Source: an uncultured virus (IMG/VR IMGVR_UViG_3300028883_000006)
Lineage: Duplodnaviria; Heunggongvirae; Uroviricota; Caudoviricetes
DNA length: 64,000 nucleotides
Direction: 5' to 3' (one strand)
IMG/VR virus record: IMGVR_UViG_3300028883_000006
The notes under the pieces are model-generated. The model had not been told where the DNA came from. It saw only the letters and a list, made by a program, of their open reading frames with translations, and made no database searches. Each line of letters opens with the position of its first letter. Within the stretch, counting starts at the first letter, position 1. Position numbers and translations under genes: made by a program. Below, in pieces: positions 15,301 to 61,177 of this stretch.

Positions 15301-18300
15301 TACCCTTCCTGCAGGAAAAGATTGAGAAATACAAGGATAACCCGAATATTACACTGAGGTTTGAGAAAGCAATCAAGTTTATCCAGGATAATCCATTACC
15401 ACAGAACAGACACCTGTATAAAGTATTGATACGCAAAGGGAGAAAACCCGGAGAACTGAACTTTATTAATTTCCTTGAACCTCTTAAAAATAAGGATGTG
15501 GTCCTTATCAGTGACCAACTGGCAAGGGAAGGTATAACAGACGCATCACTTGAACACGCACTTTGGGATATTACACCTGCAAGGGTGCTGTATAAACAAT
15601 TATCACGAATACTGGGATCCGATAAGGAAGCATCATTATTACTGTCCAGGGCAGGTATTGACGGATTTATTTACCCTACCGAAATAAGCGACAGGGAAAA
15701 AGGCAGGGGTAAAGGAGTTAACTATGTAGTATTCAGGGAAGATAATATAACTGTTAAAGACAGGTTAAGCTACAGGCTTAGTGATGAATCCCCCGAGAAA
15801 AAAGGACCTCCTAAAAATCTTATAAAGACCGCAGCAGAGAAAAGACAGGCTACATGGCAGGACAGGATGTTATCTGTTAAGAAATGGCAAAATTCTATAC
15901 GGGGTAGAGGGGGAATGATAACCGAATCATCAAATCCTTATCGTCAGGAAAACCTGTCACATGGAGCCGTTAAACACGCTGTTGAGCAATATAATGAGAA
16001 ATATGTGGATCCCTTACTGGAAACCATAGGTAACATGATGAACACAGCAGGTATTGATTATGAGGAGGTAAACCTGTATATGAAAGCCAAACACGCCCCG
16101 GAACGCAACGCTGAACTAAGGGAGAGGACTGGCAAGGATGTTAATGCAGGTATGACAGACGAGGCTGCAAATGAGATTATAGACAGGTTTGAGAGTAAGT
16201 TTACAGAGGAAACAATTAACACCCTCTGGAATAAGATTAATGCTGCTACAGGATATACGCTAAAGAGATGGATGCAGGATGGTTTTATATCGACTGACCT
16301 GTATAAGAAAATAGCAGGTATGTATGACTATTATGTACCCCTGAGAAACTGGAAGAAAACAGAGCTTGATGAGTTTTACGAATACCAGGGAGAGGATGTA
16401 GGCAAGGTGGTTAACCCGCTAAAGACGGCAAGAGGTAGAAAATCAGAGGCAGATGATCCCCTGCAGTATATAGTCAACATGGCTCATACGGCAGTTGTGA
16501 CAGGTGAGAAAAACCGTATCAAACAACACGCTGCAAGGCTTGTCCGTAACAACAAAGATATGACGGACCTGCATAAGTTTAAGAAGATATACCGGGTATT
16601 TGACGGTTCGTATGATGAAATGGGTAATAAGAACTATTACGAAACAACCGAAAGACCGGCACAGGATATATGGGATAGAGGATGGGTACTAACAAAAGAG
16701 GATACCCAACACATGAAGGGCAGGGCTATGTCACAGGCTAAAGAGCATGAGACAGAAGTATGGATCAATGGCGATAAGTATGTTATGGTTCTTCCGGCTG
16801 ATGTATCCAATGCACTGAATAAGACTCCTTCCAGGTGGGATAATGTGGCTTATATAACACGAAACAACTTTGGAAGGCTTACCAGGTGGCTGTCAAGCAA
16901 CTTTACCAGTAAAAACCCTGCCTTTATTCCCATAAACCAGATGCGAGATTTACAATATGCAGCACTGGCCCATTATTGCAAGGGTGATGCAAAACAGTCC
17001 TTAGAGTTTATGAAAGCCTTGCCTAAAGCCAGGGGAGCAATAATAAGGTATCTGAAAGGCAAAGGGGAGGCTGATAACAAGTATGACCAGATGTACCTTG
17101 ATTTTATGCTCAATGGAGGAGAGACAGGATGGGTACACCTGAAGGATGTGGACCAGCTTGCTAAGGAAATGGAGAAGGAACTGGCAAGGATGACCGGGAA
17201 GAATACAGTATGGGATAAGACCATACATAATAAATACCTGAGAATAGCCGGTCAATGGATGGAACACATGGCTATAAGGAGTGAGAACCTGTCAAGGTTT
17301 GCAACGTATATCATTGCAATAGAAGCCGGTAAGTCGCCCAAGCAGGCTGCCTTTGAAGCTAAGGAGATCACTGTGAACTTTAACCGCAAGGGTAGAGCTT
17401 CATCCTTGATGGGTTCCTTATATGCCTTCTTTAACGCATCCCTGCAGGGAGGTAATAATATATATAACCTGGGCAAGAAACATACTGCTAAATTTTTGGG
17501 CGTAGGTGCCGGATTTATGGCAATGGGGTTCTTGTCTGCTATGCTAAACCATTTATGGGGTGGAGATGATGATGAAGGAGATAATTACTATGAGGGTTTG
17601 AATGATTATGTCAAGTATAATCACCTTGTCATAAAAAGCCCCTTCGGTGACAGGTTCTTGACTATACCCCTGCCTCATGGATTCAGGTGGTTCAATAGTC
17701 TTGGTGTGATAGCTTACGAAAACCTGTTTACCGATAGCAAAACGATAGGGGACAGCGTAAAAGATGCTGTTTCTAATGCCTTTGCATCAATATCGCCTGT
17801 TAACCCAGTTGAGTTCCTGGGAGAAGATGAGCAGTTGACACTAAGGCCCCTTGTTCCAACAGGACTAATGCCCTGGTATGATATATGGGTTAATGCTGAT
17901 TTTACAGGAAGGAACATACACAGGGAACCGTTTACTAAAGCTCTTGATGGAAGAATAGCTGATTCTTCACTTGGGCAGTCCTATGTAAACCCGGGTGTCA
18001 AATGGCTTACCGATAACCTGTTTAAGGTAGGTGGTGGAGATCCTGATGTAGGAAGTAAATTTTACCTTGATGACAATGGTAAGATACATAAGGTAAGCGA
18101 TATGTTCGACAAGAACCCTTCAGATATCGAACACATGATTGAATACTACCTGGGTGGTAGAGGAACATTCTGGAATAATCTTGTCAAGACCAGTGCATCT
18201 ATAGTACAGGGAGCCGGAGAAGTAATGACCGGTGACAAGGACTTTCAGAATATTGTTGATGATGTTAACATGAATAACCTGCCTATTGTACGCAGATTGC

Positions 18301-18596
18301 TTCGTCAGCCCTGGAATAATACTGTATATAGCAAGTACTATAAAATAGTTGATGAGATAGAGGATTATAAGTCACTTATAAGTCAGCGCAACAAAGGACT
18401 GGAGAGATATGAGAAGGAGGGATTTACCCCTGAGTGGCAGATAAAGATTGATATGCTTAATATGTTAAAAGATGACCTTGAATACATAGATGAAGATATT
18501 AAGCTGATAGAGGATCCCCGACAGGTTAAGGAATTTAAGGGCCTTCAGGAGATGTTGATAAGGAATTTTATAGAAGATATATCTAAATATGAGTAG
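387..18596 (+). CDS. Giant polyvalent (DarB-like) protein, 6069 aa: InPase-like domain, two DNA methyltransferases, SF2 helicase, JAB/RadC, metallopeptidase, ADP-ribosyltransferase, LPD38-like C-terminus
   Basis: Motifs: SEAQKKAGNYKKGH/DGDQVDVF/FDEHKVMLGF (~3520-3960); DIPY and DPFAGSG (~4780-5430); NATGTGKT, DESHH, SATP, QAEGRINR (~7720-9540); EPSAGHG and NPPF (~9690-10330); HNHPSG (~11340); HEVVGH (~14680); WHGSP..GTGEG..YGWGMYFT (~15050); IPLPHGF (~17665). Confidence 0.9.
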   Translation: MPTSLKDPDKKKKIQDPKDRMKEIQKMFALPSVDFGPGVEALPDLDAQVLGDDYLPQTDEQKQFEKEWGEKGPGEKFGLGWKKGVNWLKGGVGNFFAETLPQISKMGTALAPGGVPYNPLFPNSKEMYEGMVEASDNDESFDNLIDRVTQASEEKFEIAEGIKGKGFVFNAANMLPQAMGTVAAAVATAATGGAPALAAIPALVSGGNLLVLSSAVVGDQLRQYDKYVEETGKDPNELERWGVALLAGAAEYASEKMRLNMALDKFVPNGLTGKLMGNILRKNPEVSSDILSKWAKKFPNKYQKLIGFIRKVNIQGMEEGGEELFAEFIQTLAQNIYLDPEHKHTIGDAVQNSLRAAAGGYAMGGFLGPITVSSNKAYHYLRRNKEGKVTLLETKDGDVFEYVGTGKNGQMTVIDNDLRPKTITREDIAKSITLKPQEVSQFLDAYKQGQENLPQLERELVNKSAERQIRSFGEKISFEGSDMISSVQDKEGNILFLKSEGPKALGKKTFVALNAETMELVILKETDIAERNEISLDEWMQSEMEAYYQTIQQSEEVAAQQQVQAEVEAEMQEKEEETPLAPGEEINYMDRKWSISEIGTDGTLYVDEITEDGVGESIEIKPEDAANIQRTGQQEEEQPGEQEEIPEQELPDYSFNGKEVTKGYVKGRIRVAKSLNDLNGLAWKNDKDLDKMVAERFPEAVPEYKVGKDKADRDEIIGIIEGATDISDLEGVTVKNDDELTEMLVAKATELNPEVIEEINKAEPLKEEEEIKAEPEQKAEETTKETSGVDETTTVVGETDPAWRHIRNNIVSEKGKSRKERSEFQRVAQEMLRSGMPVNEVIGKINKKYSLNIPLFFDVEGAAKDIKEKPPEKPPTGGAGAMVVKPQPEKAEGEVDQKEPTEREKYGLEQLRPTYRGTTLSEWEAIQDGGVISSDNMQEATWITDKKEYADDYAKSKDDGVIIEFKPEVIDKSAVESGQENDETGIRLGKGLTIDDILRVTNAKGEVIYEAGKEATPVEKEEKTEQEEEQAPSKQAEVEKESAKVDTSPSEAQKKAGNYKKGHVSIQGMEISIEQPALSIRSGKDSKGNKWSVMLHNPYGYFRRTEGKDGDQVDVFLGDNLESKKVFVIDQVVPGTGEFDEHKVMLGFENFKEAEDNYLANYEPGWKGLGEIVEMDIDEFKEWLGNGTRTKKPVGELLKEQEDKQEEVKRQAYNEFSEKYKSIENIETLNTAIEELFALQRKVGYLKHGDPDYPWGTIGKGWGFSDELANKTPGEQNWEREEVGLTPDKKGWAVMNRIDLAKSPNGYWASEYSWSLGSSGGGSAPSIHSKAFATRKEALRHGLERFIENMSKRKEGAETKSDIAYAEKLLKEAKAKLNEIGGPLKKAEFAGDILEKPKTQKEQVKQVLKGEESKSIKEIADETGIVEPSIRRILGVGTKQGEFERVDKGVYKLVTEDGKTTAWIHAGDAVEVLPRLAKEGFKADMIFLDIPYTTSAIKSGNRELNFDKISPQQFDKVVQSISQIARSEDTPVLFMHSTSKTGTKDMEEYLQVIEKEFKPVAKGFYTKYYRNGNRVTMPMRKDFLPPEAIVLMTKSGEFTPISKEFDLDFDLVRPKGYPTEKPAEMLRKLIEMTTYEKDMILDPFAGSGVTGAEAVKAGRDVTLIEKSEKAVEGVIKPRVERAAKESEPTVSTEGITSPAIEITKDEWAVMDVTKTLKSPYRRQYLKNLGIDEERYKEIKDSLYRKKILLANGGITGLGLAVVDGLYKRAGVKSIVGRSYEKPDSPVWNLWKKEEPVSQEQGLRESWRETLIKAREAAVSVFTKEELDELREKGLDWTDREAIVKAVDNKLNEKPTEEGLAPEVGPGEERMNDPGTDLAKILKPGMVFRNIYIGPSYKWKREDYGIYSSEGYPVQGMEVLTVKRVEDKQGRPGYHHYWVTAIRTDAPRKKDGGFKQNVLDAEESIYNFVLHRGRIEETHAPVPGTTGENMERIFVIDDRASGVKPKPATQQQEIKPVEKKKPARKKKPSRTDKVLERDPESFLEATLQFFVKGGRIATQDFVAHTGFKPKTTEFRKFIWAIKNTGQSLDVFNEALQNSFGMEDKGPMDMINEVIEIMKMYPSRGKMLNALEDIQNQQEPQDREDIPDMEVIEADLEDMDRDEDFDYILNSETYGPIIDEFTNWEGYFNVGNLLAKIEADPFYFTTFPYGLSEQELKDFKKTLKNDGKSIQERIKAAYRAFGDSEEENTPGSSEGDEIRTGAEGERGEEEEIDEAELFNDIAKKEEDVEHRPIDTERHSQAGTSEVQADEQDVPEKPVDSSEGRRKTSESTGKGTGTELSTTGTRKDSPGDMGDIAPVSGERGDRQVHKEDERPKSDEGFAGDLFTAGGVDLHGERQARPRREGQEGDRGDVEKTRKVSSYKVKAQLEAESIPVKENDVQNIKDTLPFLFPEQHDDVIKTERRFQEGKGMLFSNATGTGKTYTGLGVAKRFDKQGKSNILIVVPTDIKAKDWIRDGRNLNLDIRQLDNTQDGGDKINVTTYANFKQNPELLKREFDLIIYDESHHIMANQKGQNTAGTEAHFKISNRNYGWALERLKANTGLWKREAEIQRRISEWNAENNSNLDKGENQVSWEYSNEIEPLERELEEVKAKQDEVLPDLQEKAKTASERTKVVFLSATPFKSHFTLRYANDYLYKMGSDSRMESGYNEGSSEDQFFISNFGYRMRYNKLTAPEAEVDVSALERMFVDNMIKKGSFAGRMLQTDYDYSRDFPIISNKGSVSLNEGIRLLLSINKNTHPEFEALDKYIHFRFYNYLYSNQLFEVLKAGMMIPRIKQHLEMGRKVVIFHRYKQAKVDHPFDFSNAYYEYNDWYNKIRVRKYLRDDKKAIEAWEKFQAKYSEYLGLKLDLRNPIQQLQDAFPGLLVFNGDVPKKVRKERQALFNDPNSGSNIILIQEQAGREGIDLHDITGNKQRVLINLGMPVDPITALQAEGRINRIGLMSNAVFEYPVLGLDIEKYHFGSKINERIGTTENLSLGNKARDLRRSFKDGFLNADVFSPNEQQGTGGKKFDMPETLERDDPYQKARALYYTNKKKTSREKSAEGIDYFATPEPLGFKMWQWLQLNRGERGLEPSAGHGAISRFAPDGVELTSIEPSNVLFSKLMVNAEGKKVNQRFEDFYVGNKFEGVAMNPPFGTGGKIAMEHLEKAFGHLSWKGGRVVAIIPAGPSMDKRLDKFLHGEDENGKQLHPDAFLRAEINLPSVSFERAGTSVNAKIVVIDKVYKADQYDIPGPVNIDLSSHTNINEFFDALENVEVPAKISKEDRKVEEVKKPERWNIHHIVRFKDNEGKIRVGTIRNIVEVAGVQRHFFIVQSAEEMPESFDIKNIIGFASEKDLAMKELDDVFTGKASTVTPRQEKLMTTSRELELIKQQHTKEGYDLHTIKLNIRLDKDDFYSLKRMAKNEGGYYSSYKGQGAIPGFNFKDEQAAKNFLAKATDFLNNRNFEVNERPQTYRQAEKEPVILAESAFDQELPLDSGSAEVQREEDTGQDRSGRNRPSLRKLGPGEFARLEVKYTIDKNLVFNGKEKIESQDDVAFLFRKLEDKAVENIFALHVLENGKSVIQHISVGSNAGSIVNFNAIADGINRFNPVKTYFIHNHPSGNINPSRADITILSKLKDAFGDVINPLGIIIDIDSGLYGTFGSIEGFENSYEIPKQAPEKEYKVYRFDRMVFNKDIDYLHEKHAKIKEQDEAAQYASAQRHTSGNKLSALILSRQNKIVANIHYPYSNLNENRHDFMADTRAYCARFNASGLILYGRGISEVDVIALNRIKEELKTTDINLLDAFDMKRIEAGEGGGASIMMEPQTDYTNGLQAEIERTREELRKVTKARQDKKNELSKRINTQGALFAGEVFGPTLEQKTTFDVDMDATQENIKRILSDYDNQIARLQKRLADLEKQAERAAIENKGQGVLFRLADEQVFYSNTQKALDVIKQDKAPWTQWQAMLVKNGAKQSEMDWLDLEGKFKDRKSVTREELQQHIDRSKIDIKEIDMSKTTDPDDEMDYNRAYNYLQETINKHDSERYELRLSLAKSGVSVEDAEGWIRQLDEQNFNNFNTNKMADAVNNILKYLPDYDINAYHDVVDAHKRAEDRFLAAKSRYVERDYTKYSRWTLPGGKNYKEILLTLKKPVKAIDPAEEQARADRWEEEYADAPFDIQERGATLEGDFLSGHWDEPNVISHVRLNERTDTQGRNILFIEEIQSDWAQKIRREGGVVNTPERLKETLQPYLDDLIKRDKALNDIKKQLDDVLAEMREYGLPQGASSGEIEWFELGDYNFLAARNERFRRLMERQKEVRSNKEYLEIDDEIERIRERAILLGRSRKELIKRREAAEEGLQNARTTYYDRKASLTENMVPDMPFKKTSEWAGLAMRRMIRYAIDNGFDAIAWTTGQQQAERYELSKQVQKIKARKLDNGNYAVDITTNEGEEYVGFGGELTENRLEEYIGKELAKKIVEDTGKTNDGKRIEYTGTDLEVGGEGMKSFYDSILPSVANKIGKKYGARVQSLELRSSNKGVTYFTYNPDGTPMKFASHSLEEAKEEIKKNNGYIVPITFDYTIERDDAGKYIVIREGIDLFDSYDIEAVVDFVQGVTKVHTMPITPELFNAFKQGVPLYRSIETPKGKTLEEQLEKPTMAGKAKKEVLGRIELLSKKYGIDINAVDTIEDLPKEIRDQVIRSGKSKRVQGLYDPASDSIYVILNNNHSFDEILKSIMHEVVGHKGVRRLLGEEWTEVMNLVYNGMDIEDIQALERKYNTTDKDTIADEYLALMAERNVNPTLLQKAIARIRQAIRKLFKLNYSYNDVINLLADTRKMLRESQKPKASDYTNAQDYLDAVEAWHGSPYAGIQNFTTGRVGTGEGYQSYGWGMYFTDKREVAKGYAEALAKYDEYYDKAETFIGQKSAKWIEKAVFYSGYDHNKVIPFLQEKIEKYKDNPNITLRFEKAIKFIQDNPLPQNRHLYKVLIRKGRKPGELNFINFLEPLKNKDVVLISDQLAREGITDASLEHALWDITPARVLYKQLSRILGSDKEASLLLSRAGIDGFIYPTEISDREKGRGKGVNYVVFREDNITVKDRLSYRLSDESPEKKGPPKNLIKTAAEKRQATWQDRMLSVKKWQNSIRGRGGMITESSNPYRQENLSHGAVKHAVEQYNEKYVDPLLETIGNMMNTAGIDYEEVNLYMKAKHAPERNAELRERTGKDVNAGMTDEAANEIIDRFESKFTEETINTLWNKINAATGYTLKRWMQDGFISTDLYKKIAGMYDYYVPLRNWKKTELDEFYEYQGEDVGKVVNPLKTARGRKSEADDPLQYIVNMAHTAVVTGEKNRIKQHAARLVRNNKDMTDLHKFKKIYRVFDGSYDEMGNKNYYETTERPAQDIWDRGWVLTKEDTQHMKGRAMSQAKEHETEVWINGDKYVMVLPADVSNALNKTPSRWDNVAYITRNNFGRLTRWLSSNFTSKNPAFIPINQMRDLQYAALAHYCKGDAKQSLEFMKALPKARGAIIRYLKGKGEADNKYDQMYLDFMLNGGETGWVHLKDVDQLAKEMEKELARMTGKNTVWDKTIHNKYLRIAGQWMEHMAIRSENLSRFATYIIAIEAGKSPKQAAFEAKEITVNFNRKGRASSLMGSLYAFFNASLQGGNNIYNLGKKHTAKFLGVGAGFMAMGFLSAMLNHLWGGDDDEGDNYYEGLNDYVKYNHLVIKSPFGDRFLTIPLPHGFRWFNSLGVIAYENLFTDSKTIGDSVKDAVSNAFASISPVNPVEFLGEDEQLTLRPLVPTGLMPWYDIWVNADFTGRNIHREPFTKALDGRIADSSLGQSYVNPGVKWLTDNLFKVGGGDPDVGSKFYLDDNGKIHKVSDMFDKNPSDIEHMIEYYLGGRGTFWNNLVKTSASIVQGAGEVMTGDKDFQNIVDDVNMNNLPIVRRLLRQPWNNTVYSKYYKIVDEIEDYKSLISQRNKGLERYEKEGFTPEWQIKIDMLNMLKDDLEYIDEDIKLIEDPRQVKEFKGLQEMLIRNFIEDISKYE

Positions 18597-26877: not shown

Positions 26878-27273
26878 ATGGGAGGTTTACTGACTATATT
26901 ATTGGTAGCCGTTGGCTATGCCATTATCAGGGCTAACCACGATAGGTACCTGAGGCAGGGAGAATGGAAAACATGGGCCTTTATAGAAGGACTTGTTATT
27001 GCCTTTGCTATATCTTTTCTGGTGGGTGGCCGGTGGTATGAGATAGGTGTTGGAACCTTACTGTTTGGCTTTACCTTCTGGATTATCTTTGACATAGTGA
27101 TGGGGATATATTTCGGTAATCATCCCCTTTATGTGGGTGAGACGAGTTTTGACCTGGAGATGAGAAAAATGTTTCAGTACACTGAGAAGTGGAAGGGAAC
27201 CTGGTATCTTATGGTCAAACTGGTATGGTGGTTGTTTGCTTTTTACCTTTATTATACATTTGGATTTGCTTGA
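26878..27273 (+). CDS. Multi-pass membrane protein
   Basis: 131 aa; about four hydrophobic segments. Confidence 0.6.
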   Translation: MGGLLTILLVAVGYAIIRANHDRYLRQGEWKTWAFIEGLVIAFAISFLVGGRWYEIGVGTLLFGFTFWIIFDIVMGIYFGNHPLYVGETSFDLEMRKMFQYTEKWKGTWYLMVKLVWWLFAFYLYYTFGFA

Positions 27274-27300
27274 GCTTGCAGAAAAGAAATTACAATATGT

Positions 27301-27338
27301 AAAAGATATTCGGCTTTAAGCCGTATTCTTTCCTTTTC
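27301..27338. terminator. Probable bidirectional terminator between converging operons
   Basis: CGGCT-TTA-AGCCG hairpin flanked by AAAAGA and TTCTTTTCCTTTT. Confidence 0.5.
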
Positions 27339-27375
27339 ATAGGTTTTAGGTTAGGTTTGAGAGAGCTGGTACGAG

Positions 27376-27792
27376 TTACCGGCTCTCTTTTATATACTGA
27401 CCCAGGTGTAATAACTGTCCATGATGCTTTATGTTTTTAAAGGGTAGATCCGGGAACCTGTCAAACAGGTCTGCATGATCAGGATAATATGATGATATAC
27501 GCATGAAATATTCAGGATCCAGAAGGTATATGATATACATTACTTCATAGAACCTGGGAAGAAATATTGTTCCTATCCTATCATTGTCGAATATTTCATG
27601 GCATGAAGGATGAGCCAGTCCGGTATTGAGTTTATTAACCTGCATCTCAGACCTTGTTTCAGACCGTCTAACAAGATGAGCAAGCTGACCATCCTTTCCT
27701 ACCCTGTGACCACAAAAGATGCAAAGAGGGTGGTTTATTTCATACCAGGACTTGATTTTGGCGAGCTTGCTATCTATTTGGGATTGGTTCAT
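27376..27792 (-). CDS. HNH-like Zn-binding nuclease
   Basis: CIFCG, AHLVRRS, NTGLAHPSCHEIFD. Confidence 0.6.
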   Translation of the reverse strand: MNQSQIDSKLAKIKSWYEINHPLCIFCGHRVGKDGQLAHLVRRSETRSEMQVNKLNTGLAHPSCHEIFDNDRIGTIFLPRFYEVMYIIYLLDPEYFMRISSYYPDHADLFDRFPDLPFKNIKHHGQLLHLGQYIKESR

Positions 27793-28103
27793 TTAATTGT
27801 TTTATTCTTACGCTTTAGTTCTTCTTTTGAAAGGGTTTTCAGTTTAATACCTGTTTTGGTAGTAAGGATATCAAAATTAGTTTCATTGAGCAGGTCAATC
27901 CTTAGTTTTAAACACTGCCTGTAGGTTTGCATTGCCTGTAGCTGTATCTTCAAAAGGAAGAACTGTAAAGGCTGAATTGAACTTTCATCCACTTTAGATA
28001 GGAAACTAATAAGTTTATCTATCCGTTCATTAACCTGACTATATTCTTCTAAAAGACGAATATAAAATGATTCATCACCGATAATGTTAATTTCTGTGTC
28101 CAT
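27789..28103 (-). CDS. Conserved small helical phage protein (crAss001_48-like)
   Basis: RLLEEYSQVNERIDKLISFL..LLKIQLQAMQTYRQCLKLRI pattern. Confidence 0.65.
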   Translation of the reverse strand: MDTEINIIGDESFYIRLLEEYSQVNERIDKLISFLSKVDESSIQPLQFFLLKIQLQAMQTYRQCLKLRIDLLNETNFDILTTKTGIKLKTLSKEELKRKNKTIK

Positions 28104-28107
28104 GTTA

Positions 28108-28479
28108 TTATTGTTTAGTTAGTTTATCCTTTAACTCATCTATGATAGTTACAAGTTTGGCATGAGTACAATGTGAATGGTCCACCTTTGCCTCAAGTTC
28201 AAATTCCTCTATAAGCCGTTTTACGGCAACATCAAACTCATGTGCTACCAACTGGTCAATAAGGCCATACCGTTCAAAACGGTTAAATAACTTGTCCTTA
28301 ATATTATTCTCCAACAAAGCCTTAAAGATTCTTCTTTCTCTCCAGGTAATATTAAGAGCATCAGCAATTATTTCACTGAGAGCCACAAGAAACTTATTTT
28401 CAATCTGGTCTTGTGGGTTCATCATTTCGCATCCGGCTTCTTCGCCATGTCCGCTTACATTGTAAATATGTGTGTCCAT
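28108..28479 (-). CDS. Hypothetical protein
   Basis: Tightly packed in the minus-strand operon. Confidence 0.55.
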   Translation of the reverse strand: MDTHIYNVSGHGEEAGCEMMNPQDQIENKFLVALSEIIADALNITWRERRIFKALLENNIKDKLFNRFERYGLIDQLVAHEFDVAVKRLIEEFELEAKVDHSHCTHAKLVTIIDELKDKLTKQ

Positions 28480-28486
28480 GTTACTG

Positions 28487-28912
28487 TTATTTTGGTTCAG
28501 TACTATATTTCAATTCGTTCACAAAAACCTCATTTGGCATAGGTATTACAACACCCAGTTCCAGTTCAGCATCAGCACGAACCTTGAGTATGTAGTTCCA
28601 TATTTCCTGCATATCGAGTTTTGTTGTGGATCCTACACCTGTTATCCATTCCATCCGTTTTGTCTCAGTGTTGTATTCCAGGTCAAACCTGAAGTTGTAT
28701 TTTATCTTATATCCTTCATGCACTTCTTCAGGGGACTGTCCTGTAGCCTCTGCAATGGTTGTGTAAACAACAGCCCATAGATAATCATTACTGTCAAGTG
28801 TCCTGATAGGATAGATAGTCTGCCAAGTAATCTTAAAAGGCAACCGTTCCTGATCAAGTAGTTCTTTCAGATCATGCAGTTGTTTCTTATTTCTTATTAC
28901 CTGGTGTATCAT
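28487..28912 (-). CDS. NinB/YbcN-like protein
   Basis: RTLDSNDYLWAVVY, IAEATG..EEVHE and STTKLD motifs. Confidence 0.65.
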   Translation of the reverse strand: MIHQVIRNKKQLHDLKELLDQERLPFKITWQTIYPIRTLDSNDYLWAVVYTTIAEATGQSPEEVHEGYKIKYNFRFDLEYNTETKRMEWITGVGSTTKLDMQEIWNYILKVRADAELELGVVIPMPNEVFVNELKYSTEPK

Positions 28913-28914
28913 TG

Positions 28915-29493
28915 TTAATGAAGGGGATATACTGAGGGTTTAAAATCAAGGATCTCTTGCATAAGGGTATCGATCTTATTATTATCAAAGTTGATTGCCC
29001 TGTCATCAACCAATACATCAAAAACAACTTTGTGGTTGCAAATACCAAGAACATACTTCTTGCTCCAGAATTTTCTTCGTGCAGGAATAATTTTATAATC
29101 AAAGGGGATTAGAGTATTCTCTTTAAATTCCATCCCAAAGATCTCGTGTTCTACTATAAAAGAGTCAAAGAACCGCTTGATTTGTCTCTTTGACCTGGTT
29201 GACATAATGAACACCGAATGGCCTTCTTCAAGCAATTTCTTTATTACCTTTAATACGGAATGCTCAATTTCATCATAGACTGATCCATCTTGCCATCCTT
29301 TACGGTATTTGTGAATAACACCATCAAAATCAAAGGCTATTGTCTTTGGACGGGATTCGCTGGAAGATTTTTTAACTTCATATTCTTTATACATTGAACA
29401 TTCAGGGAAGTCACAATAAGGATCATCTACAAAGCTGCAGCCTAATTCCTTATACAGAGTACAGTGCTTAACAGGATCATTATGTTTTCTCAT
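28915..29493 (-). CDS. HAD-superfamily phosphatase (nucleotidase-like) with Cys-rich N-terminus
   Basis: IAFDFDGVIH, IMSTR, LVDDRA; N-terminal C-x7-C-x7-C-x4-C. Confidence 0.8.
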   Translation of the reverse strand: MRKHNDPVKHCTLYKELGCSFVDDPYCDFPECSMYKEYEVKKSSSESRPKTIAFDFDGVIHKYRKGWQDGSVYDEIEHSVLKVIKKLLEEGHSVFIMSTRSKRQIKRFFDSFIVEHEIFGMEFKENTLIPFDYKIIPARRKFWSKKYVLGICNHKVVFDVLVDDRAINFDNNKIDTLMQEILDFKPSVYPLH

Positions 29494-29520
29494 AGTTTCT
29501 TACTTTATTTGCGAATAATA

Positions 29521-29720
29521 GATAGTGTTCCGGGGCATCATGTGTAGCAGCTAAAATTGGTAAAAAGCTGTTGCCTGGTCTTTATCCAGGTATTTCACAT
29601 ATTAGTCAGGCTACTCCCGACAAATTCCTGACGGAGTTGAATGTTTTACGAAGTCCTACATCTCCGGACGGTTCCTCCTGGACCCTTAGGCCCATACCCC
29701 GGAATACACTCAACACTATC
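29521..29720 (-). ncRNA. Candidate structured non-coding RNA (200 nt, multibranch)
   Basis: GC-rich intergenic gap; ends GATAGTGTT/AACACTATC pair, TTCCGGGGTAT/ATGCCCCGGAA pair, and several internal hairpins. Confidence 0.65.
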
Positions 29721-29904
29721 TGCTTTCAACAGATTGATTTGTGTCCTGTTTTCCAGGATCATCTTCATTGACAGTAGTTCCTCCCCCAGTACCCTCATTA
29801 AATTCTTTATCGTCTTTTTTCTTGTTCGCTGTCTTGTAAATCATATAAAACAGTACAAAGGCAAGAACAATAACAATGAATATCAGTATATAATTAGTTC
29901 CCAT
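29716..29904 (-). CDS. Small single-TM protein
   Basis: 62 aa; N-terminal hydrophobic helix then charged tail. Confidence 0.6.
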   Translation of the reverse strand: MGTNYILIFIVIVLAFVLFYMIYKTANKKKDDKEFNEGTGGGTTVNEDDPGKQDTNQSVESR

Positions 29905-29926
29905 TTCTCGTTGTTTTTAAAGGTTA

Positions 29927-30307
29927 TTATCTTAGTTTACTATCATATACTACCACATCATTGTCGAGTATATGCCATGTTGATACTAAACAGGATGCCA
30001 TAAACCCCAACACGAACAGGGCAAGAGGTAATGCACCTGTTGATATGACAGACCATAATCCCAGTATTCCAAGTATCGGCCCGATAAGTATTAGGAACCA
30101 TTTACCTTTGAAAAAATGCTTCGGGTTCAACAGGTTTACGTCATTATCAACTATGTGCCATAATGATACTATACAGGAAATAAACAATCCTATAAGCAAG
30201 ATCCACAGGGGGAACCCTGCAGTTGACGAAAGCGACCATAATCCGAATACTCCAATTAACGGAGCAATAAGGATCAAAAACCATTTACTTTTAATTAACT
30301 TTTTCAT
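29927..30307 (-). CDS. Four-TM membrane protein with an internal tandem duplication
   Basis: Two copies of KWFLILI.P..G..GLWS..ST...PL......WHI.DNDV. Confidence 0.7.
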   Translation of the reverse strand: MKKLIKSKWFLILIAPLIGVFGLWSLSSTAGFPLWILLIGLFISCIVSLWHIVDNDVNLLNPKHFFKGKWFLILIGPILGILGLWSVISTGALPLALFVLGFMASCLVSTWHILDNDVVVYDSKLR

Positions 30308-30336
30308 GTCTCTATGTGTTTGTTAAACATTATGTT

Positions 30337-30717
30337 TCAGAAGGGATTATCCTCCTCTATATCTTCTGCCGGTTGATCTTTGGAAGGGGCCTTTGACAGC
30401 ATCTTCATCTCATCGACCATTATCTCCGTCTTGTAATGAGTATTACCTTTATCATCCTCCCAGGACCGGGTTTTTATCCTGCCCTCAACAGCTATCAGCA
30501 TACCTTTGGTGATATGCTTTTCTGCTACCTTCGCAAGGTTTCCCCACATGACAATGTTGTGCCATTCTGTTTCCGTTACCTTTTCATTCTGCTTGCTCAT
30601 ATAGGATTCATTAGTGGCAAGGGGGAAGTTTGCCACTACCTTACCACTATCCAGATATTTCACATCGGGATCGTTTCCTACATTGCCTATCAGTTGTACT
30701 TTATTCACTATGCTCAT
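30337..30717 (-). CDS. ssb: Single-stranded DNA-binding protein
   Basis: VNKVQLIGNVGNDP, TEWHNIV, VEGRIKTRSW; acidic tail ending in PF. Confidence 0.95.
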   Translation of the reverse strand: MSIVNKVQLIGNVGNDPDVKYLDSGKVVANFPLATNESYMSKQNEKVTETEWHNIVMWGNLAKVAEKHITKGMLIAVEGRIKTRSWEDDKGNTHYKTEIMVDEMKMLSKAPSKDQPAEDIEEDNPF

Positions 30718-30758
30718 ATCAAAGTCGTTTTTATGTTTGTAAATAATATTGTTTATAC

Positions 30759-31151
30759 TTACTCATCCTTACTAAAGTCTTTATATGTCCTCTTATCGCC
30801 TTCCTTCTTCTCCATTCTTAACTTAATTTGAGTATATTGCCTTTGGATATAATCGTTGCTGGTTACAATAGCATAGCACTTGGCAAGTCTTTCAGTGTAT
30901 CTCATCTTTTCAATAAGGTTTAACTTTTCAAAGATTTTTATTAGTCCTTTGTCCAGGGCATAGAAATTACCGTCACTTGCTTTCATTATGTAATAAGTCT
31001 TGCCATCCTGCCGATTGAACTCCCTGGCTTTGTTTATTGTCCTATTCAGCAATTTGGTTTCTCTATTGATCGACCATTGCTGTCTTTTGTAGGCAATCCA
31101 TTCCTGCCAGTCAAGACGGATCCTTAGCAATATTTCCTTAGCGTAATTCAT
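30759..31151 (-). CDS. Hypothetical protein
   Basis: 130 aa; overlaps the upstream gene in the operon. Confidence 0.55.
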   Translation of the reverse strand: MNYAKEILLRIRLDWQEWIAYKRQQWSINRETKLLNRTINKAREFNRQDGKTYYIMKASDGNFYALDKGLIKIFEKLNLIEKMRYTERLAKCYAIVTSNDYIQRQYTQIKLRMEKKEGDKRTYKDFSKDE

Positions 31152-31665
31152 AGGTCCCCTTTTTTATACCTTCTGCAAACTTCCTTAGGCTTTTAATATT
31201 GAATAGGTATGTAATACATTCTCCTACTAATAGATCATCCCTGTCAGGATCAAACTTTATTTCAATATGATCTTTCTCATCAAGTATCTCTATAAGTTTG
31301 TCAGCTATACTTCTTTTGACTATCCCTGCTATATTCTCAGGTGTAAGGTTAGAACACAATAGTTCAGCCGGTATCTGTAATTTCATGCTAATTTTTGAAG
31401 CTCCCGGGGCATCCCTTACAGGCTCCTCAAAGACTTCCATTATACCAAGTCCATGAGCATTAATGTTTCTTGCCCCATACCAATAAGCATTTTTGAACTG
31501 CCTCTTAAACCTGCAATCAAACTTTATAATCTGTCCCTTCATGGACTCCGGTTCGTTAGCAAGGATATCCAGTTTTTCATCTCTGTCCTTGATATCCTTC
31601 ATTAAGGAATTTGCTAATTCCTTTAGTTCTTTATTTTCTCTTTTCAGTTTTCTTATTCCAAACAT
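31138..31665 (-). CDS. Hypothetical protein
   Basis: 175 aa directly downstream of the terminase. Confidence 0.55.
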   Translation of the reverse strand: MFGIRKLKRENKELKELANSLMKDIKDRDEKLDILANEPESMKGQIIKFDCRFKRQFKNAYWYGARNINAHGLGIMEVFEEPVRDAPGASKISMKLQIPAELLCSNLTPENIAGIVKRSIADKLIEILDEKDHIEIKFDPDRDDLLVGECITYLFNIKSLRKFAEGIKKGTYELR

Positions 31666-31677
31666 GACTTCCTATAT

Positions 31678-33693
31678 TTAAAAACTGGCTTCAGACTGTA
31701 CCTTTTTAACACTGGCTGAAGTCGAAGTTTTGGTTACTATCTTTGGTGGTGGCAGGTATCTGAGAACTATCCAAAGGTCAATAGCTGTAGTAATGACTAT
31801 ATCATCATGTCCTCCATCCACTGCTCCCAGTGTACCATTCTGTTTTATCTCGTACATATCCATCTCATCACAAGCCCTGGAGTCTCTTTCTATATATCCT
31901 TCCTCCCTTAGTACAGCGTTCATCAGGTTTATGACCATTGGCTTAGTTGACAGGTTAGTATGAAATCCATACTTTGCAGGTATTCCTTCCCTTACTCTTT
32001 CGGGATCTGTCCTTGCATACAGGTTAGGGTAGTAGTCCTTTATCTCATCGAGTATTGTAAGTGAGTGTTCACCTTCCGTTCCTTCCGTTTCGGTTCTCAA
32101 GGAGTTTACTTCAATAGCAACTATACCTTTATTATAAAACCATCCTATCTGTGCTGCCTTCCATGCAACAAGGTCCTGGTCAAGGTGTCCTCTCCATGTA
32201 GCAACTACCTCAGGCTTGCCTCCTTCTATCATCCAGTATCTATCAATTACCCGGATAACAGACCAGTCTGCATCTTTAGTTCTTCCCCCGATATCTACAG
32301 ACACCGGATATCTGTTAGGGATATTGAGTGATTTGTCAGGCAATGACCATATCCATAGTTCCCCTGCAGGATTCTTGACAAACCTTATATTCTTCAAGGC
32401 ATCTGGTCCGAAGTGTGAGTCAGCATCTAAATCTCCGATGATTTCAGGTTCCTTGCAGTTCTGTCTTGCTTTCTGGACATATACCGGTGCAAAGGCCCTT
32501 CTTCCTGTTGACTGGAAGGCTTCTTCCGGGGTTGAAGGAAATTCGGAGTTCATACGCCAGTCATCGTACCCTTCACCTTTCTTTGTCCTAATATACCAGT
32601 TAATACCCTCCAGGGTAGCTCCCAGTTCCCATAGGAATTGTGCATACTCATTCCCTTTACGGAACACCCATCTTATAAACTTGGTATAATCTAAGATAGG
32701 TCTTTGGTATATTTCTATCTCCCACCATGCAACAAAGACAGGGCGATAATCGGATATTTTGTTTACAGCACTTATCCATTCTCTATGAAAGAAGTTACCT
32801 ACACCTTTAGCTGTTGACTCCATCACAGCCAGGGTATAAGGTTCATTGGGTATTGTTGCTCTTATGGATTGGGCAAGATCTTCTGCAGACTTTTGTGCTG
32901 TTGACTTCCATAATCCAACCTCAGACAGGTGGCTCATAGCAAAGTCAAATGATCTGAGGTTGTCAGGTTTTTGTACCGACCCTACACCTACAATACAGTT
33001 ACGTTCAACAATCCTTTTGTTCTTAGTACTTCCTTCAAATGCTTCAAAGGTGATGCTCCCTACAGCTTTGGGGTATTCCCTTGCCAGGGTAGTATACATT
33101 CCCCTTATGTTTCGTGCCTGGTCCTCTACATCTGCAATAATGGCTGAGTGCCAGTTTTTCTTATGTTGTGTCTGTATCCAGGCCATGTAATACTGAACCA
33201 TAGTTGAGCCTCCCCATTGTCGTGCCTTAAGCAATATAATTCTTATAGGGATATTGTTCAGCCTCATATCCTCAAGTTCTACCAGGAGTTTCCTTTGAGC
33301 CTTATTAAGCCTGAACTGGATCTGTTCTTTGCTTATCTTATCCTGTATCTTGCCACAGGTATATGCCCAAAACTCGAAGTCGTGTTTCATCCTTTGTTCA
33401 TTGAGGTTAGCCATAAGGATATCGACATCCGACTTTCTTCCCTGCCCCATTACTTTTAGCACAACTTCCTCAGGGGATCCAAGCTGGTTAAGAAGATCAA
33501 TGACTCGTTTGTTTTCCTGGTACATTGACTCCGGGACAAAGAGTGTAAACTTCCGGCTGTTATAGAAGTATTCAACCTTAACCCTTTTTAGAGGCGAACC
33601 TACACCTGTAATAGGATCATAAAAAGAAAATAGGTCATCCCTTCGCTTCTTGTTTTCCTCAAATATTATCCCTATTTCCTTATTTGTTATCAT
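31678..33693 (-). CDS. terL: Terminase large subunit
   Basis: RIILLKARQWGGST (Walker A), HLSEVG (Walker B), MESTAKG; nuclease motifs VDIGG and HDDIV. Confidence 0.92.
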   Translation of the reverse strand: MITNKEIGIIFEENKKRRDDLFSFYDPITGVGSPLKRVKVEYFYNSRKFTLFVPESMYQENKRVIDLLNQLGSPEEVVLKVMGQGRKSDVDILMANLNEQRMKHDFEFWAYTCGKIQDKISKEQIQFRLNKAQRKLLVELEDMRLNNIPIRIILLKARQWGGSTMVQYYMAWIQTQHKKNWHSAIIADVEDQARNIRGMYTTLAREYPKAVGSITFEAFEGSTKNKRIVERNCIVGVGSVQKPDNLRSFDFAMSHLSEVGLWKSTAQKSAEDLAQSIRATIPNEPYTLAVMESTAKGVGNFFHREWISAVNKISDYRPVFVAWWEIEIYQRPILDYTKFIRWVFRKGNEYAQFLWELGATLEGINWYIRTKKGEGYDDWRMNSEFPSTPEEAFQSTGRRAFAPVYVQKARQNCKEPEIIGDLDADSHFGPDALKNIRFVKNPAGELWIWSLPDKSLNIPNRYPVSVDIGGRTKDADWSVIRVIDRYWMIEGGKPEVVATWRGHLDQDLVAWKAAQIGWFYNKGIVAIEVNSLRTETEGTEGEHSLTILDEIKDYYPNLYARTDPERVREGIPAKYGFHTNLSTKPMVINLMNAVLREEGYIERDSRACDEMDMYEIKQNGTLGAVDGGHDDIVITTAIDLWIVLRYLPPPKIVTKTSTSASVKKVQSEASF

Positions 33694-33896
33694 GGTTGGA
33701 CTCTTTTTGTTTTTCTTCTTATCTCCTTCTGTATCACTTTGGCTATATGTGAATTACTACAGAAAAATTCATCTGCCAGGAGATCGTAAAAATGTTTCTT
33801 TGGGAGCAATGCGGAATTTGGCTCAGAGGCTATTAGCTCTTTATATCTTTCAAATATCCGCTTGTGTTTTAACGAAGTTTGCGTAATACGTAACAT
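33690..33896 (-). CDS. Small HTH-like protein (late regulator or terminase small subunit candidate)
   Basis: 68 aa; YDLLADEFFCSNSHIAKVI is helix-turn-helix-like; ATGA overlap with terL. Confidence 0.5.
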   Translation of the reverse strand: MLRITQTSLKHKRIFERYKELIASEPNSALLPKKHFYDLLADEFFCSNSHIAKVIQKEIRRKTKRVQP

Positions 33897-33923
33897 AACA
33901 TTGACTTTTTCACTTAATAAAAT

Positions 33924-33961
33924 TAGGCTTATTAGTCCTGTTCTTAGGGTTAATAACCCTA
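33924..33961. promoter_or_regulatory. 38-bp inverted-repeat element, copy 2, in the divergent terminase/capsid gap
   Basis: TAGGCTTATTAGTCCT-GTTCTT-AGGGTTAATAACCCTA; a TAGATTTG (-7 box) follows at 33982-33989. Confidence 0.65.
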
Positions 33962-34023
33962 TTAGTTACTTACAATTAATATAGATTTGACTCATACGAA
34001 TCATAAAACCAATTTGTATTATT

Positions 34024-35025
34024 ATGGAAGGAAGTACATCAGCAGGTGCAGCAGCCGGAGAAGGAACGCCATCAGGCGAAGCATCAGAGGGTGCCGTACA
34101 AGCACAGCAAACAAATGAGGCAGGGGAAGTACAGGTAACTGAAAAAGCAACCCCCGAGAAAAAGACTGAACCGATAAAAGAAAAGACAATAGCAGATACT
34201 ATTGAGAAGGAACCCGAGAAGAAACCCGAGAAAGATACAGAAGGGGAAAAAACCGAAGGGAAAGAAGAAAAGAAAGATGAAGCGAAGGAGGAGAAGCCAG
34301 TACACAAACACCATGATCGTTTGAGTAAGGCTTTTCCTGATCGTCCATTTGAGAATGATAATGACTATGATACTGCATTGGAAGAATACCTAAGCGACCT
34401 TGAGAGTTATAAGGATAGAGGAGTGACTGCCAACCAGAAACTAATAAATCTGTTTGAAGCATCTCCTGAGGTTGCAGAGGTAGTCCGGGATATGATTGCG
34501 GGGGCCACACTAAGAGAAGCCCTGGCAAGGCATATATCACCTGAGGATCTTAGTCCTGTCGAAGGTGATCCTGATTATGAAGGCTGGGAAAAGAATAAGA
34601 ATGATAGAGTGAAGAAAGCCGAGGATCGCAGGAAATTTGAACAGGAATACAGTGAGAACCTGGAGTTTTCCAGTCAGGCTATAAAGGAGTTTGCTAAGGA
34701 AAATGATATGACTGAAGAAGCAGCCAGTGATTTTCTTGGCAAATTTGATAACATCCTGGCAGACATCTATCGTGGGAAGATAGGCAAGGAAACACTTGCT
34801 CTTATTAAAAGGGCAATGGACTATGACTCTGCAGTGGAGAAAGCAAAGGAAGATGGCAAAATTGTAGGGAGAAACGAAAAGATTGTTGTCAAGAAAAAAG
34901 AGGACAAAAAAGAGGGAGATGGACTTCCTAAGGTCACAGGTTCAACACTTGAGGACCAAGAAAAAGAAGGCAAGCATTTCTTAGAGGACATGCTTGATCG
35001 TATCAATGAAAGGAAGGTGCTTTAA
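34024..35025 (+). CDS. Capsid scaffolding protein
   Basis: Acidic, low-complexity N-terminus and helical body; directly upstream of the capsid gene. Confidence 0.7.
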   Translation: MEGSTSAGAAAGEGTPSGEASEGAVQAQQTNEAGEVQVTEKATPEKKTEPIKEKTIADTIEKEPEKKPEKDTEGEKTEGKEEKKDEAKEEKPVHKHHDRLSKAFPDRPFENDNDYDTALEEYLSDLESYKDRGVTANQKLINLFEASPEVAEVVRDMIAGATLREALARHISPEDLSPVEGDPDYEGWEKNKNDRVKKAEDRRKFEQEYSENLEFSSQAIKEFAKENDMTEEAASDFLGKFDNILADIYRGKIGKETLALIKRAMDYDSAVEKAKEDGKIVGRNEKIVVKKKEDKKEGDGLPKVTGSTLEDQEKEGKHFLEDMLDRINERKVL

Positions 35026-35056: not shown

Positions 35057-36421
35057 ATGAAAAACAATATTTTTTATTACGGAACTAAAATACTCGGCTT
35101 TGCCCTTTTTGTGGCAGTGCTGTTAGTATTTAATACTGTCGCTGCTGCAGCTACAGGTGTAGTCTTTGCTATGGCTGATGGTGCTGTTGTAGCTGACCAG
35201 CCGGTGCATACCACACCGGTTAAAGCAGGTAGTGCAGATTTGCTAACTAACCATATATCCAAGATAGTAACGCAGATGAAACCTGCTGCTACTCCCCTGG
35301 ATACGATACTCAGGCAGGTAAATAACCAGGTAAAGATCAATTCATTCAGGAGTGACTTTTACAGGGTTGACTCCAGACCTTTATATGATACTGTTAAGAC
35401 AGCTTATACTAAGACTGGTGACGGTGTAACTAATGTTGAACTTGAGGTTAATAATATTCAGGCATGGAGTGCTGATGACACCTGTATGTTTAAAGGCGTA
35501 ACAGGGGCACAGGACAGTAATGACCTTGTATGTTATGTAATAAGCAAGAATGTCAGTACATCTAAGATAAAGATTCAGCCCCTTAACGGTGATTCTGGTT
35601 CAGGAACTACTGAAGGTTCGATTGTACTGCCAACTATAGCACAGAATACTGTTATAGTACGTATGGGACCTGTTAAGCACGAACTGGATGCTCAGACAGA
35701 TCCTTACGCTATCGTGCCTGTCAAGGACTATAACTATGTCCAGATATTCATGGCACAGGTAGAAGAAGGTACTTACCAGGCCATGCACAGCAAGGAAGTT
35801 GACTGGTCATTCAAAGACTATGAGGCTCAGAATATCTATGATATGAGAGCAAGGGTTGAGTATTCATTCCTATTTAGTTATAGGTCACTGTTTACTTCTG
35901 TAGAAGATAGTAAAGAACGTCACACTACAGGAGGTGTTACAAGGAATATAACCAAAGGTCTTGAGTATGGTACCGGTGGAGCAGACCGTACCGTTACCGA
36001 TGCTAATTTTGTTGACTGGACCAAGAGTATCTTTACAGGTAACTCAGGAGCAGAGACAAGAGTGCTTTTCATAGGTGATGGTCTTGGTGCTAATATATCA
36101 AAGATCACTACAGTACAGAAACAGATCGAAGCCAAGAAGGTAGAGGTTAAATGGGGTATTCGCTTCAATCAGATTGAAACTAACTTTGGTATCCTTCTGA
36201 TGAAACATCACCCACTGTTTAATATTGCTGGATGGGGTGATAATGGACTTGTACTTGATATGAATAATATCGAGAAGCATGTATGGAAGCCGATGGCAGC
36301 TCGTAAACTTGACCTTATAACCTCAGGACAGAGAAATGCTAACGCATCTGTTATAGAGGAGGCAAGTGCAGCTATATGTCGATATCCTGATACTCACGCT
36401 ATAATTGCACCTAAGGCATAG
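35057..36421 (+). CDS. Major capsid protein with hydrophobic N-terminal leader
   Basis: TPLDTIL, YNYVQIF, EYSFLF, TTGGV and IETNFG..LMKHHPLF resemble SU10/DUF5309-type capsids; sits between scaffold and a terminator. Confidence 0.8.
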   Translation: MKNNIFYYGTKILGFALFVAVLLVFNTVAAAATGVVFAMADGAVVADQPVHTTPVKAGSADLLTNHISKIVTQMKPAATPLDTILRQVNNQVKINSFRSDFYRVDSRPLYDTVKTAYTKTGDGVTNVELEVNNIQAWSADDTCMFKGVTGAQDSNDLVCYVISKNVSTSKIKIQPLNGDSGSGTTEGSIVLPTIAQNTVIVRMGPVKHELDAQTDPYAIVPVKDYNYVQIFMAQVEEGTYQAMHSKEVDWSFKDYEAQNIYDMRARVEYSFLFSYRSLFTSVEDSKERHTTGGVTRNITKGLEYGTGGADRTVTDANFVDWTKSIFTGNSGAETRVLFIGDGLGANISKITTVQKQIEAKKVEVKWGIRFNQIETNFGILLMKHHPLFNIAGWGDNGLVLDMNNIEKHVWKPMAARKLDLITSGQRNANASVIEEASAAICRYPDTHAIIAPKA

Positions 36422-59389: not shown

Positions 59390-59983
59390 ATGAAAATATT
59401 TAGCAAGATTAACAAATGCAGGTGGGAGTTAGCCAAAAAGCTAAAAGACACACCTCACATAATAATAAGAATTACTACCAGGTGTAATTTAAAATGTTCT
59501 TACTGTTCTATCAGGACTGTATGTAAGATACCTTCTGATCTTAAGGAGCTACCGCCAGAATACTGGATCAAAGAAATGGATAAGTTTGATATTATTACTA
59601 TCAGTGGGGGAGATCCGTCTGTATATAGAGATGTTCATAAAATTATTAATGCCCTGGTAAAGAAAAAGAAACTTGTAAGAGTAGGGACAAATTTAGTTGA
59701 TATTACTGAATTTAAAAAAGTAATTCCTTCATGGCGTGTTTATTTCATGGCTACATTTCATCGTAGTGAGATGACCGTTAATCAAAGGTCGAGGTTTAAA
59801 GAAAACTATAAGGAAATGAGTAAGAAATATACTATTGTTTCTAAAGAAATGAGACATATAGGTGATAACACCCCGCCTTATTTTAATAAGAGTAAAATAT
59901 ACTGGCTGAAAGAAAGCAGAGAGGAATTGCCAACTCCGGGATATTTCCCCGATGGCAGCATAGAAGAAGGAGAGGCTTGTTAG
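59390..59983 (+). CDS. Short radical SAM protein
   Basis: CNLKCSYC and ITISGGDP. Confidence 0.85.
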   Translation: MKIFSKINKCRWELAKKLKDTPHIIIRITTRCNLKCSYCSIRTVCKIPSDLKELPPEYWIKEMDKFDIITISGGDPSVYRDVHKIINALVKKKKLVRVGTNLVDITEFKKVIPSWRVYFMATFHRSEMTVNQRSRFKENYKEMSKKYTIVSKEMRHIGDNTPPYFNKSKIYWLKESREELPTPGYFPDGSIEEGEAC

Positions 59984-60064
59984 ATGGAATTACTTATCCT
60001 CATAGCATTTTTAGGATTCATCGCTTGGTTTGTAGTAAAAATGGCAGGAAACGAAAAAAGATAA
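59984..60064 (+). CDS. 26-aa single-TM peptide
   Basis: MELLILIAFLGFIAWFVVKMAGNEKR; ATG directly after the radical SAM stop. Confidence 0.5.
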   Translation: MELLILIAFLGFIAWFVVKMAGNEKR

Positions 60065-60069
60065 AACTA

Positions 60070-60720: not shown

Positions 60721-60734
60721 TAAACAATAGAGAG

Positions 60735-60953: not shown

Positions 60954-60962
60954 ACAATAGAG

Positions 60963-61166: not shown

Positions 61167-61177
61167 ACAATAAAGCC

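Follow-up and report, generated by a model that had tools for sequence, protein, structure and literature searches.

A branched RNA fold predicted in the sole large gap of a packed phage operon: an unproven candidate

The window analyzed here, that is, the whole stretch of 64,000 nucleotides of DNA, is a segment of a tailed-phage genome. It contains a 6069-aa ORF (387-18596) that is intact under translation table 11, and it also encodes a P22-like portal, an amidase, RecT, a YqaJ-like domain, a DnaB helicase, an SU10-type major capsid protein and a crAss001_48-related protein. The gene at 44461-45636 specifies a tyrosine integrase in which Arm-DNA-binding_5 and SAM-like domains are present. 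The presence of the integrase, the 6069-aa ORF, the SU10-type capsid and the crAss001_48-like protein suggests a temperate phage with crAss-like features. The sequence of the window is present in marine-sediment metagenome runs, and relatives of its terminase in GTDB (37-47% identity) were found at four loci, three of which lie on Bacteroidales-labelled MAGs and one on an Eubacteriales-labelled assembly. In another part of the window (59390-62159), neighbouring genes for a radical-SAM protein, a DUF5131/radical-SAM protein and a protein with a formyl-transferase domain form a cluster that may represent a nucleotide or DNA-modification module.

The region of interest belongs to a block of closely packed minus-strand genes. 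The order of this block is a 68-aa ORF, the large terminase, two ORFs, SSB, a 126-aa ORF, a 62-aa ORF, a non-coding gap, a HAD-superfamily hydrolase, a NinB/Orf-like protein and four more ORFs. The 126-aa and 62-aa ORFs between SSB and the gap are two small membrane ORFs. The main features are as follows:

27376-33896, minus strand: packed operon that holds the gap
31678-33693, minus strand: large terminase
30337-30717, minus strand: SSB
29716-29904, minus strand: 62-aa ORF with a hydrophobic N-terminus, upstream of the gap, its stop codon within helix P1
29494-29715, minus strand: non-coding gap of 222 nt
28915-29493, minus strand: HAD-superfamily hydrolase of 192 aa, downstream of the gap

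A first-pass annotation of this DNA had described the gap as the largest one in an otherwise packed operon, which was borne out by measurement (222 nt versus at most 41 nt for the other spacers in 27376-33896). The same annotation placed the gap inside the terminase operon. This is correct in that the terminase belongs to the same operon, but the neighbours of the gap are recombination and accessory genes and not packaging genes. Upstream, the 62-aa ORF is closed by a pair of stop codons in the same frame (TAG-TGT-TGA); downstream, a search of solved structures with the HAD protein gave no matches.

Some variation was observed elsewhere in this operon. In two marine-sediment runs (X2 and X3), 121 nt replace the 8 nt at 30747-30754, a length polymorphism in the spacer between a 130-aa ORF and the SSB gene. 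In run X2, the contig depth over 27000-34000 rises abruptly close to 30.5 kb (roughly 68 before and 125 after), and several contigs diverge into unlike sequence at 27799, 30018 and 30655. Such a pattern suggests a second strain that has a common terminase region and different accessory genes.

The candidate element begins at the stop codon of the upstream ORF and ends some 26 nt short of the start codon of the HAD gene. All helices named in the first-pass annotation could be found in the minus strand of 29521-29720, and the predicted parts of the element are listed below.

29520-29721, minus strand: whole candidate element, non-coding, with a G+C content of 0.47 and a perfect inverted repeat of 10 nt at its ends
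29712-29721, minus strand: 5' arm of P1 (GAUAGUGUU plus one A), which includes the UAG stop of the 62-aa ORF
29520-29529, minus strand: 3' arm of P1, the outer helix
29706-29710, minus strand: AGUGU, which directly repeats a segment of the P1 5' arm and pairs with ACACU
29524-29528, minus strand: ACACU, the partner of AGUGU in the alternative outer register
29694-29703, minus strand: 5' arm of P2 (UCCGGGGUAU), a robust closing helix with one U-G pair
29529-29538, minus strand: 3' arm of P2 (AUGCCCCGGA)
29680-29693, minus strand: hairpin H1, GGGCC-UAAG-GGUCC, pair probability 0.99, stacking directly on P2
29633-29665, minus strand: hairpin H2, GGAG-AUGU/ACAU-CUCC with a 13-nt loop, pair probability only 0.28-0.52
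29605-29632, minus strand: hairpin H3, GUCAGG/CCUGAC with pair probability 0.28 versus 0.71 for the competing GUCGGG/CCUGAC
29540-29600, minus strand: three-way domain H4, closing stem AUGUG/CACAU with pair probability 0.61-0.65
29574-29590, minus strand: inner hairpin of H4, CCUGG/CCAGG, pair probability 0.96-1.00
29548-29570, minus strand: inner hairpin of H4, CAGCU/AGCUG, pair probability 0.96-1.00
29494-29519, minus strand: A+U-rich leader (G+C 0.22), unpaired, between the element and the HAD start codon

The arms of the outer inverted repeat (29520-29529 and 29712-29721) are complementary over all 10 nt, and the inner arm pair (29525-29538 and 29694-29707) consists of 14 nt with 86% complementarity. 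P1 and P2 together comprise 18-20 bp with a bulge of 7-9 nt, and the outer register of this closing helix shifts in context: the pair probability of P1 was 0.94-0.97 for the isolated element and 0.02-0.07 with 50-200 nt of flanking sequence. Two alternative outer registers exist because AGUGU is repeated within the 5' arm of the closing helix, and the AGUGU/ACACU register, which leaves only a 2-nt bulge beside P2, wins in the mRNA context. P2 itself had a pair probability of 0.86-1.00 when isolated and 0.95-0.96 with flanks, and P2, H1 and the two inner hairpins of H4 (H4a and H4b) all held values of at least 0.95 with 50-200 nt of flanking sequence. In a 300-nt context fold, the leader and the HAD start codon were unpaired. 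It should be noted that three G-U pairs on the minus strand correspond to A-C mismatches on the plus strand.

The first-pass annotation had also proposed a possible loop-loop pseudoknot, and this part of its model could not be upheld. The complementarity amounts to 5 nt within the loops, or 6 nt when a stem base is counted, and is at chance level: when the five loops were shuffled with their composition preserved (5000 trials), at least 5 nt of complementarity appeared in 44% of trials and at least 6 nt in 12%. The loop-loop complementarity is not evidence of a pseudoknot.

With regard to composition, the G+C content of the element is 0.47 compared with 0.344-0.378 in the three flanking ORFs measured, which places it about 12 points above its flanks. 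Presumed genuine intergenic gaps in the window, based on rough gene calls, had G+C contents of 0.25-0.37; several gaps with higher G+C in these calls were miscalled genes and were set aside. The ORFs that overlap the gap comprise two on the minus strand (36 and 50 aa) and others of 24-120 aa on the opposite one, none of them fills it, and the translations of all six matched no PHROG and no Pfam family at E values up to 1. The gap is without a credible ORF.

No known RNA family had been recognized in the first-pass annotation, and a search of the whole window with all 4227 models of Rfam 15 agreed with this, giving no match at the gathering score. A relaxed Rfam search of 29300-29950 and 29505-29735 (651 and 231 bases, respectively) returned only matches with E values of at least 3, and these sub-threshold matches (lncRNA, plant-virus CITE, miRNA and snoRNA) were plainly spurious. 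ARAGORN detected neither tRNA nor tmRNA in the window. The minus strand of the gap contains no sigma-70-like promoter, and none of the six terminator-like sites in 27000-34200 lies within the gap. The sequence TAnnTTTG is a -7 promoter consensus of Bacteroidota, and it was not found near the gap on the minus strand.

A number of other candidates were examined and rejected. An intron in a split gene does not fit since no frame stays open from the 3' end of the element to the start of the HAD gene. Stop-codon recoding was dismissed on the grounds that each of TAG, TGA and TAA is met in frame in the first 30 nt or so beyond the 62-aa ORF and that the 6069-aa ORF is intact under table 11. An attP site was dismissed on the grounds that the integrase is 15 kb distant. 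A retron or Y RNA would call for a partner protein, and neither an RT nor a TROVE domain was present among the 53 window ORFs scanned with Pfam, a set outside which the 6069-aa ORF and some small ORFs lie.

We then compared the fold with several kinds of controls. The minus strand of the element folds better than shuffled sequences, contrary to one of the refuting outcomes named in the first-pass annotation, with a minimum free energy (MFE) of -67.6 kcal/mol and a z-score of -3.31 (2 of 200 dinucleotide shuffles were as good). An independent shuffler gave a z-score of -3.04 for the same strand, with none of 150 shuffles as good. By raw MFE, the element ranked 3rd among 3192 windows of 200 nt; by the residual from a regression on composition, it ranked only about 14th of these 3192 windows. 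The plus strand had an MFE of -59.9 and a z-score of -2.99, and the DNA fold of the element had a z-score of -3.79. Among the controls, the antisense strand of the major capsid gene (35121-35320, minus strand) scored -3.87, with 1 of 200 shuffles as good, and a sense coding control window scored -2.80. Ensemble diversity was 33 on the minus strand versus 48 on the plus strand; the minus-strand value was below the shuffle mean, yet 32 of 150 shuffles were equally low. Nested perfect helices of at least 16 Watson-Crick pairs with a span of 60-320 nt occurred twice in the real window, and the same criterion gave a mean of 1.23 per 64-kb window in 30 first-order Markov simulations.

These fold statistics are not specific, since the other strand, the DNA fold and the control windows do about as well. 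Because strand, DNA and gene-internal controls score alike, energy statistics alone fail to single out the region. What remains unusual is a helix that brackets the sole large gap, the raised G+C content and the G-U pairs that favour the minus strand, which is presumably the transcribed one. As a separate observation, the minus-strand fold of 35121-35320 has a long near-perfect hairpin, which may reflect chance, an antisense RNA or mRNA structure.

The occurrence of the element in other sequence collections was also analyzed. Only identical copies were found, on one IMG/VR contig and on contigs from three marine-sediment runs. The IMG/VR contig (4881 bp) is identical over the entire operon segment. 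Searches of GenBank phages by blastn, with either the element or the 6.7-kb operon as query, returned nothing relevant, and the nearest of the virus records compared, a 24.6-kb fragment, does not contain the region. Scans of IMG/VR with the HAD protein and with the terminase detected six and seven loci, respectively; in each scan one locus was identical, and the remaining ones reached at most 58% (HAD) or 50% (terminase). The next IMG/VR relatives share none of the neighbouring genes. A 31-nt word of the element matched only itself across IMG/VR, and three words of 17-18 nt matched seven, two and two non-self loci, none of which (0 of 11) agreed beyond the seed. A HAD scan of JGI/ENA metagenome contigs yielded 10 loci (best 58%), none with the element, and the four loci from the terminase scan of GTDB genomes (at most 47%) gave no covariance-model match.

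The covariance model in question (R1) was built from the single element sequence and a structure in the style of the earlier reader. Over the window and 21 related loci it detected itself plus one fragment with an E value of 0.99, and it found nothing in five viral records, four terminase-relative loci and four genomes. In 151 genomes of one phylum it gave two matches with E values of 0.03-0.05 per genome, which is at chance level. A check for a MITE revealed no extra copies in the window, the related loci, the genomes or the IMG/VR word scans, so that this refuting outcome named in the first-pass annotation did not arise. On the contigs of the three marine-sediment DNA runs there were no differences over the element, and 200 nt is too short for this to be meaningful; one of these runs (X3) showed four substitutions elsewhere in the 7 kb compared.

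Examination of HAD homologs showed that 13 other loci lack the element, and in 8 of the 12 loci with a callable upstream ORF the upstream gap was between -13 and +5 nt. The gene content flanking the terminase was highly variable among relatives. Upstream of a distant HAD homolog on viral contig L003 (2235-2450), we observed an unrelated G+C-rich perfect hairpin of 16 bp, and the fold of this region had a z-score of -5.57 (0 of 200 shuffles as good). The gaps upstream of two further HAD homologs (L022 and L024) were unstructured, with z-scores of -0.25 and -0.03.

On the basis of these results, we tentatively favour, at somewhat less than an even chance, a reading in which the element is a co-transcribed intercistronic RNA structure that might act in cis on mRNA processing or stability, or might be excised as a stable RNA. 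The analysis shows the sequence, its lack of coding capacity, its composition, its predicted fold and no match to a known family; transcription, folding in vivo and any processing are inferred. The 222-nt gap would be a G+C-enriched spacer transcribed within the minus-strand operon, in which P2 (10 bp and G+C-rich) and one of two competing outer registers of 5-10 bp could close a multibranch core, with three core hairpins (H1, H4a and H4b) predicted to be very well defined. The long interrupted closing helix, coaxial with H1, is the feature that would best suit such a role: a double-strand-specific RNase might enter the transcript there, or the helix might protect it by blocking exonucleases, as intercistronic signals do in T7-type phages. 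Cleavage would separate the upstream and downstream cistrons or give them differing stability, and it could also free a core of about 165-200 nt as a stable RNA. Since the upstream stop codon sits inside P1, formation of the outer helix would be tied to, and would depend on, ribosome traffic over the 62-aa ORF.

Several observations led us to favour an RNA reading: the gap is the largest in the operon, has no credible ORF and exceeds its flanks in G+C; the fold combines a z-score of -3.31 with the 3rd raw MFE rank and with P2, H1, H4a and H4b that are stable to flanking sequence; the minus strand has the G-U pairs, the lower MFE and the lower ensemble diversity; and the element fits between the upstream stop and a point about 26 nt before the next start. 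The absence of a promoter, a terminator and TAnnTTTG on the minus strand fits co-transcription. On the other hand, this reading is weakened by the finding of identical copies only, which offer no covariation, by the equally unusual folds of the plus strand and the DNA, by the capsid-antisense control with its z-score of -3.87, by the corrected rank of about 14th and by the expectation of about 1.2 chance helices per 64 kb. It is further weakened by the unstable outer register, the poorly defined H2, H3 and H4 stem and the unremarkable ensemble diversity, and by the fact that terminating ribosomes would open P1, which holds the upstream stop codon. The first-pass annotation had also raised the ideas of a ribozyme, a packaging RNA or a decoy, for which nothing was found in the sequence, fold, Rfam or homolog analyses. 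A more specific version, which we regard as rather unlikely, is that a so far unseen stable RNA of about 200 nt, having a multi-way junction with a long closing helix and lying in the packaging/recombination operon of a temperate, crAss-like-related phage of marine sediment, is cut from the operon transcript, acts in trans and founds an unsampled family.

The RNA reading is only slightly more probable than a neutral spacer or an inverted repeat that matters at the DNA level. In the former case, the gap would be a plain spacer or the decayed remnant of a lost gene or insertion, and the fold a chance inverted repeat that has no function. We consider this doubtful, and still a serious contender, as gene-internal control windows fold equally well or better, both strands and the DNA fold equally well, and chance predicts about 1.2 such nested closing helices per window. 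Moreover, relatives of the HAD gene either lack the gap or have a protein-coding ORF in its place, and the strong variation of gene content near the terminase among relatives points the same way. However, this reading sits less well with the G+C content, which is above that of presumed genuine intergenic gaps, and with the absence of any protein-family trace in the six gap-overlapping translations. The inverted repeat also brackets the gap nearly exactly, for which the chance is about 0.004 (approximately 1.2 x 222/64000). The DNA-level alternative, that is, a small inverted-repeat insertion (MITE-like or a recombination scar) or a site for protein binding or recombination within a module that has genes for SSB and a NinB-like mediator, appears unlikely. 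No second copy was found in the window, the IMG/VR scans yielded no copies (the 11 non-self word loci match in the seed only), the bases beyond the repeat arms do not form a direct repeat and so give no target-site duplication, and no empty-site allele was present among the contigs of the three runs; the G-U pairs also favour one RNA strand. What speaks for a DNA element is the perfect 10-nt terminal inverted repeat with its nested second arm pair, the DNA fold (z-score -3.79), a G+C content 12 points over the flanks as foreign DNA would show, and the intergenic length polymorphism 1 kb away in the same phage population.

A riboswitch or other cis-regulatory leader of the downstream HAD hydrolase gene seems very unlikely to us. 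The element lies directly upstream of that gene and has a multi-helix junction with a P1-like closing helix in two competing registers, and its size of about 200 nt is typical of large riboswitch aptamers. Nevertheless, no expression platform was found, as the element is not followed by a terminator-like hairpin and U tract and the start-codon region is unpaired in the context fold; no Rfam riboswitch was matched even at E values up to 10, and the HAD homologs at 13 other loci do without the element. That the gap encodes a small unannotated protein is hardly credible: the short ORFs noted above do overlap it, but none of them fills it, those on the minus strand either begin at a GTG or share sequence with the 62-aa ORF in a different frame, none of the six has a family match, and the three frames are closed between the 3' end of the element and the HAD start codon.

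To place the candidate intercistronic RNA among known RNAs, we compared it with systems of similar position or architecture. In the polycistronic mRNAs of T7-type phages, the intercistronic RNase III sites are simple hairpins of about 50-60 nt. Like these signals, the element lies between cistrons of an operon, has a helix of about 20 bp with an asymmetric internal loop and has no promoter or terminator attached to it; unlike them, its helix closes a multibranch core of 165 nt, and its cleavage site is only putative. The lysine riboswitch has a five-way junction with a loop-loop contact, and the element resembles it in its size of about 200 nt, its P1-type closing helix, its junction with several hairpins and the possibility of pairing between loops. 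It differs in that neither an Rfam riboswitch match (E values up to 10) nor an expression platform was found, and in that the loop pairing is at chance level. The phi29-type pRNA, a phage-encoded packaging RNA with two mutually complementary loops, is of similar size and likewise comes from a genome region that includes the terminase. However, the element has no Rfam match, the large terminase of this phage is of the ordinary kind and its portal is P22-like, and the complementary loops are A/U-rich here and not beyond chance. The resemblances to the lysine riboswitch and the phi29 pRNA are architectural only.

A parallel in kind is offered by the candidate structured RNAs (csRNAs) predicted in phage intergenic regions, including those upstream of terminase, RusA and similar genes, which are defined by covariation among non-identical IMG/VR homologs (PMC10690425). 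The element is like these csRNAs in being a non-coding intergenic phage stretch for which several helices are predicted and which has packaging and recombination genes nearby, and unlike them in having a single, identical IMG/VR copy. With only that identical copy in IMG/VR, the element could not have entered the catalogue as its method is described there (PMC10690425). At the level of titles and abstracts, no paper on such an RNA in crAss-like phages or Crassvirales was found. The element lies outside every described family and at most resembles predicted phage intergenic structured RNAs in kind.

Taken together, the gap is predicted to be able to fold into a branched RNA, which is an unproven candidate. 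As it stands, the finding is mainly a caution, since a z-score near -3.3 and a tidy multibranch fold also occur in coding and antisense controls here; as these controls fold alike, single-sequence folding should not be read as evidence of a non-coding RNA. If real, the element would be a further structured RNA from Bacteroidota-type phages of a lineage that has been little sampled, and it would show that many phage RNAs are invisible to comparative pipelines as singletons.
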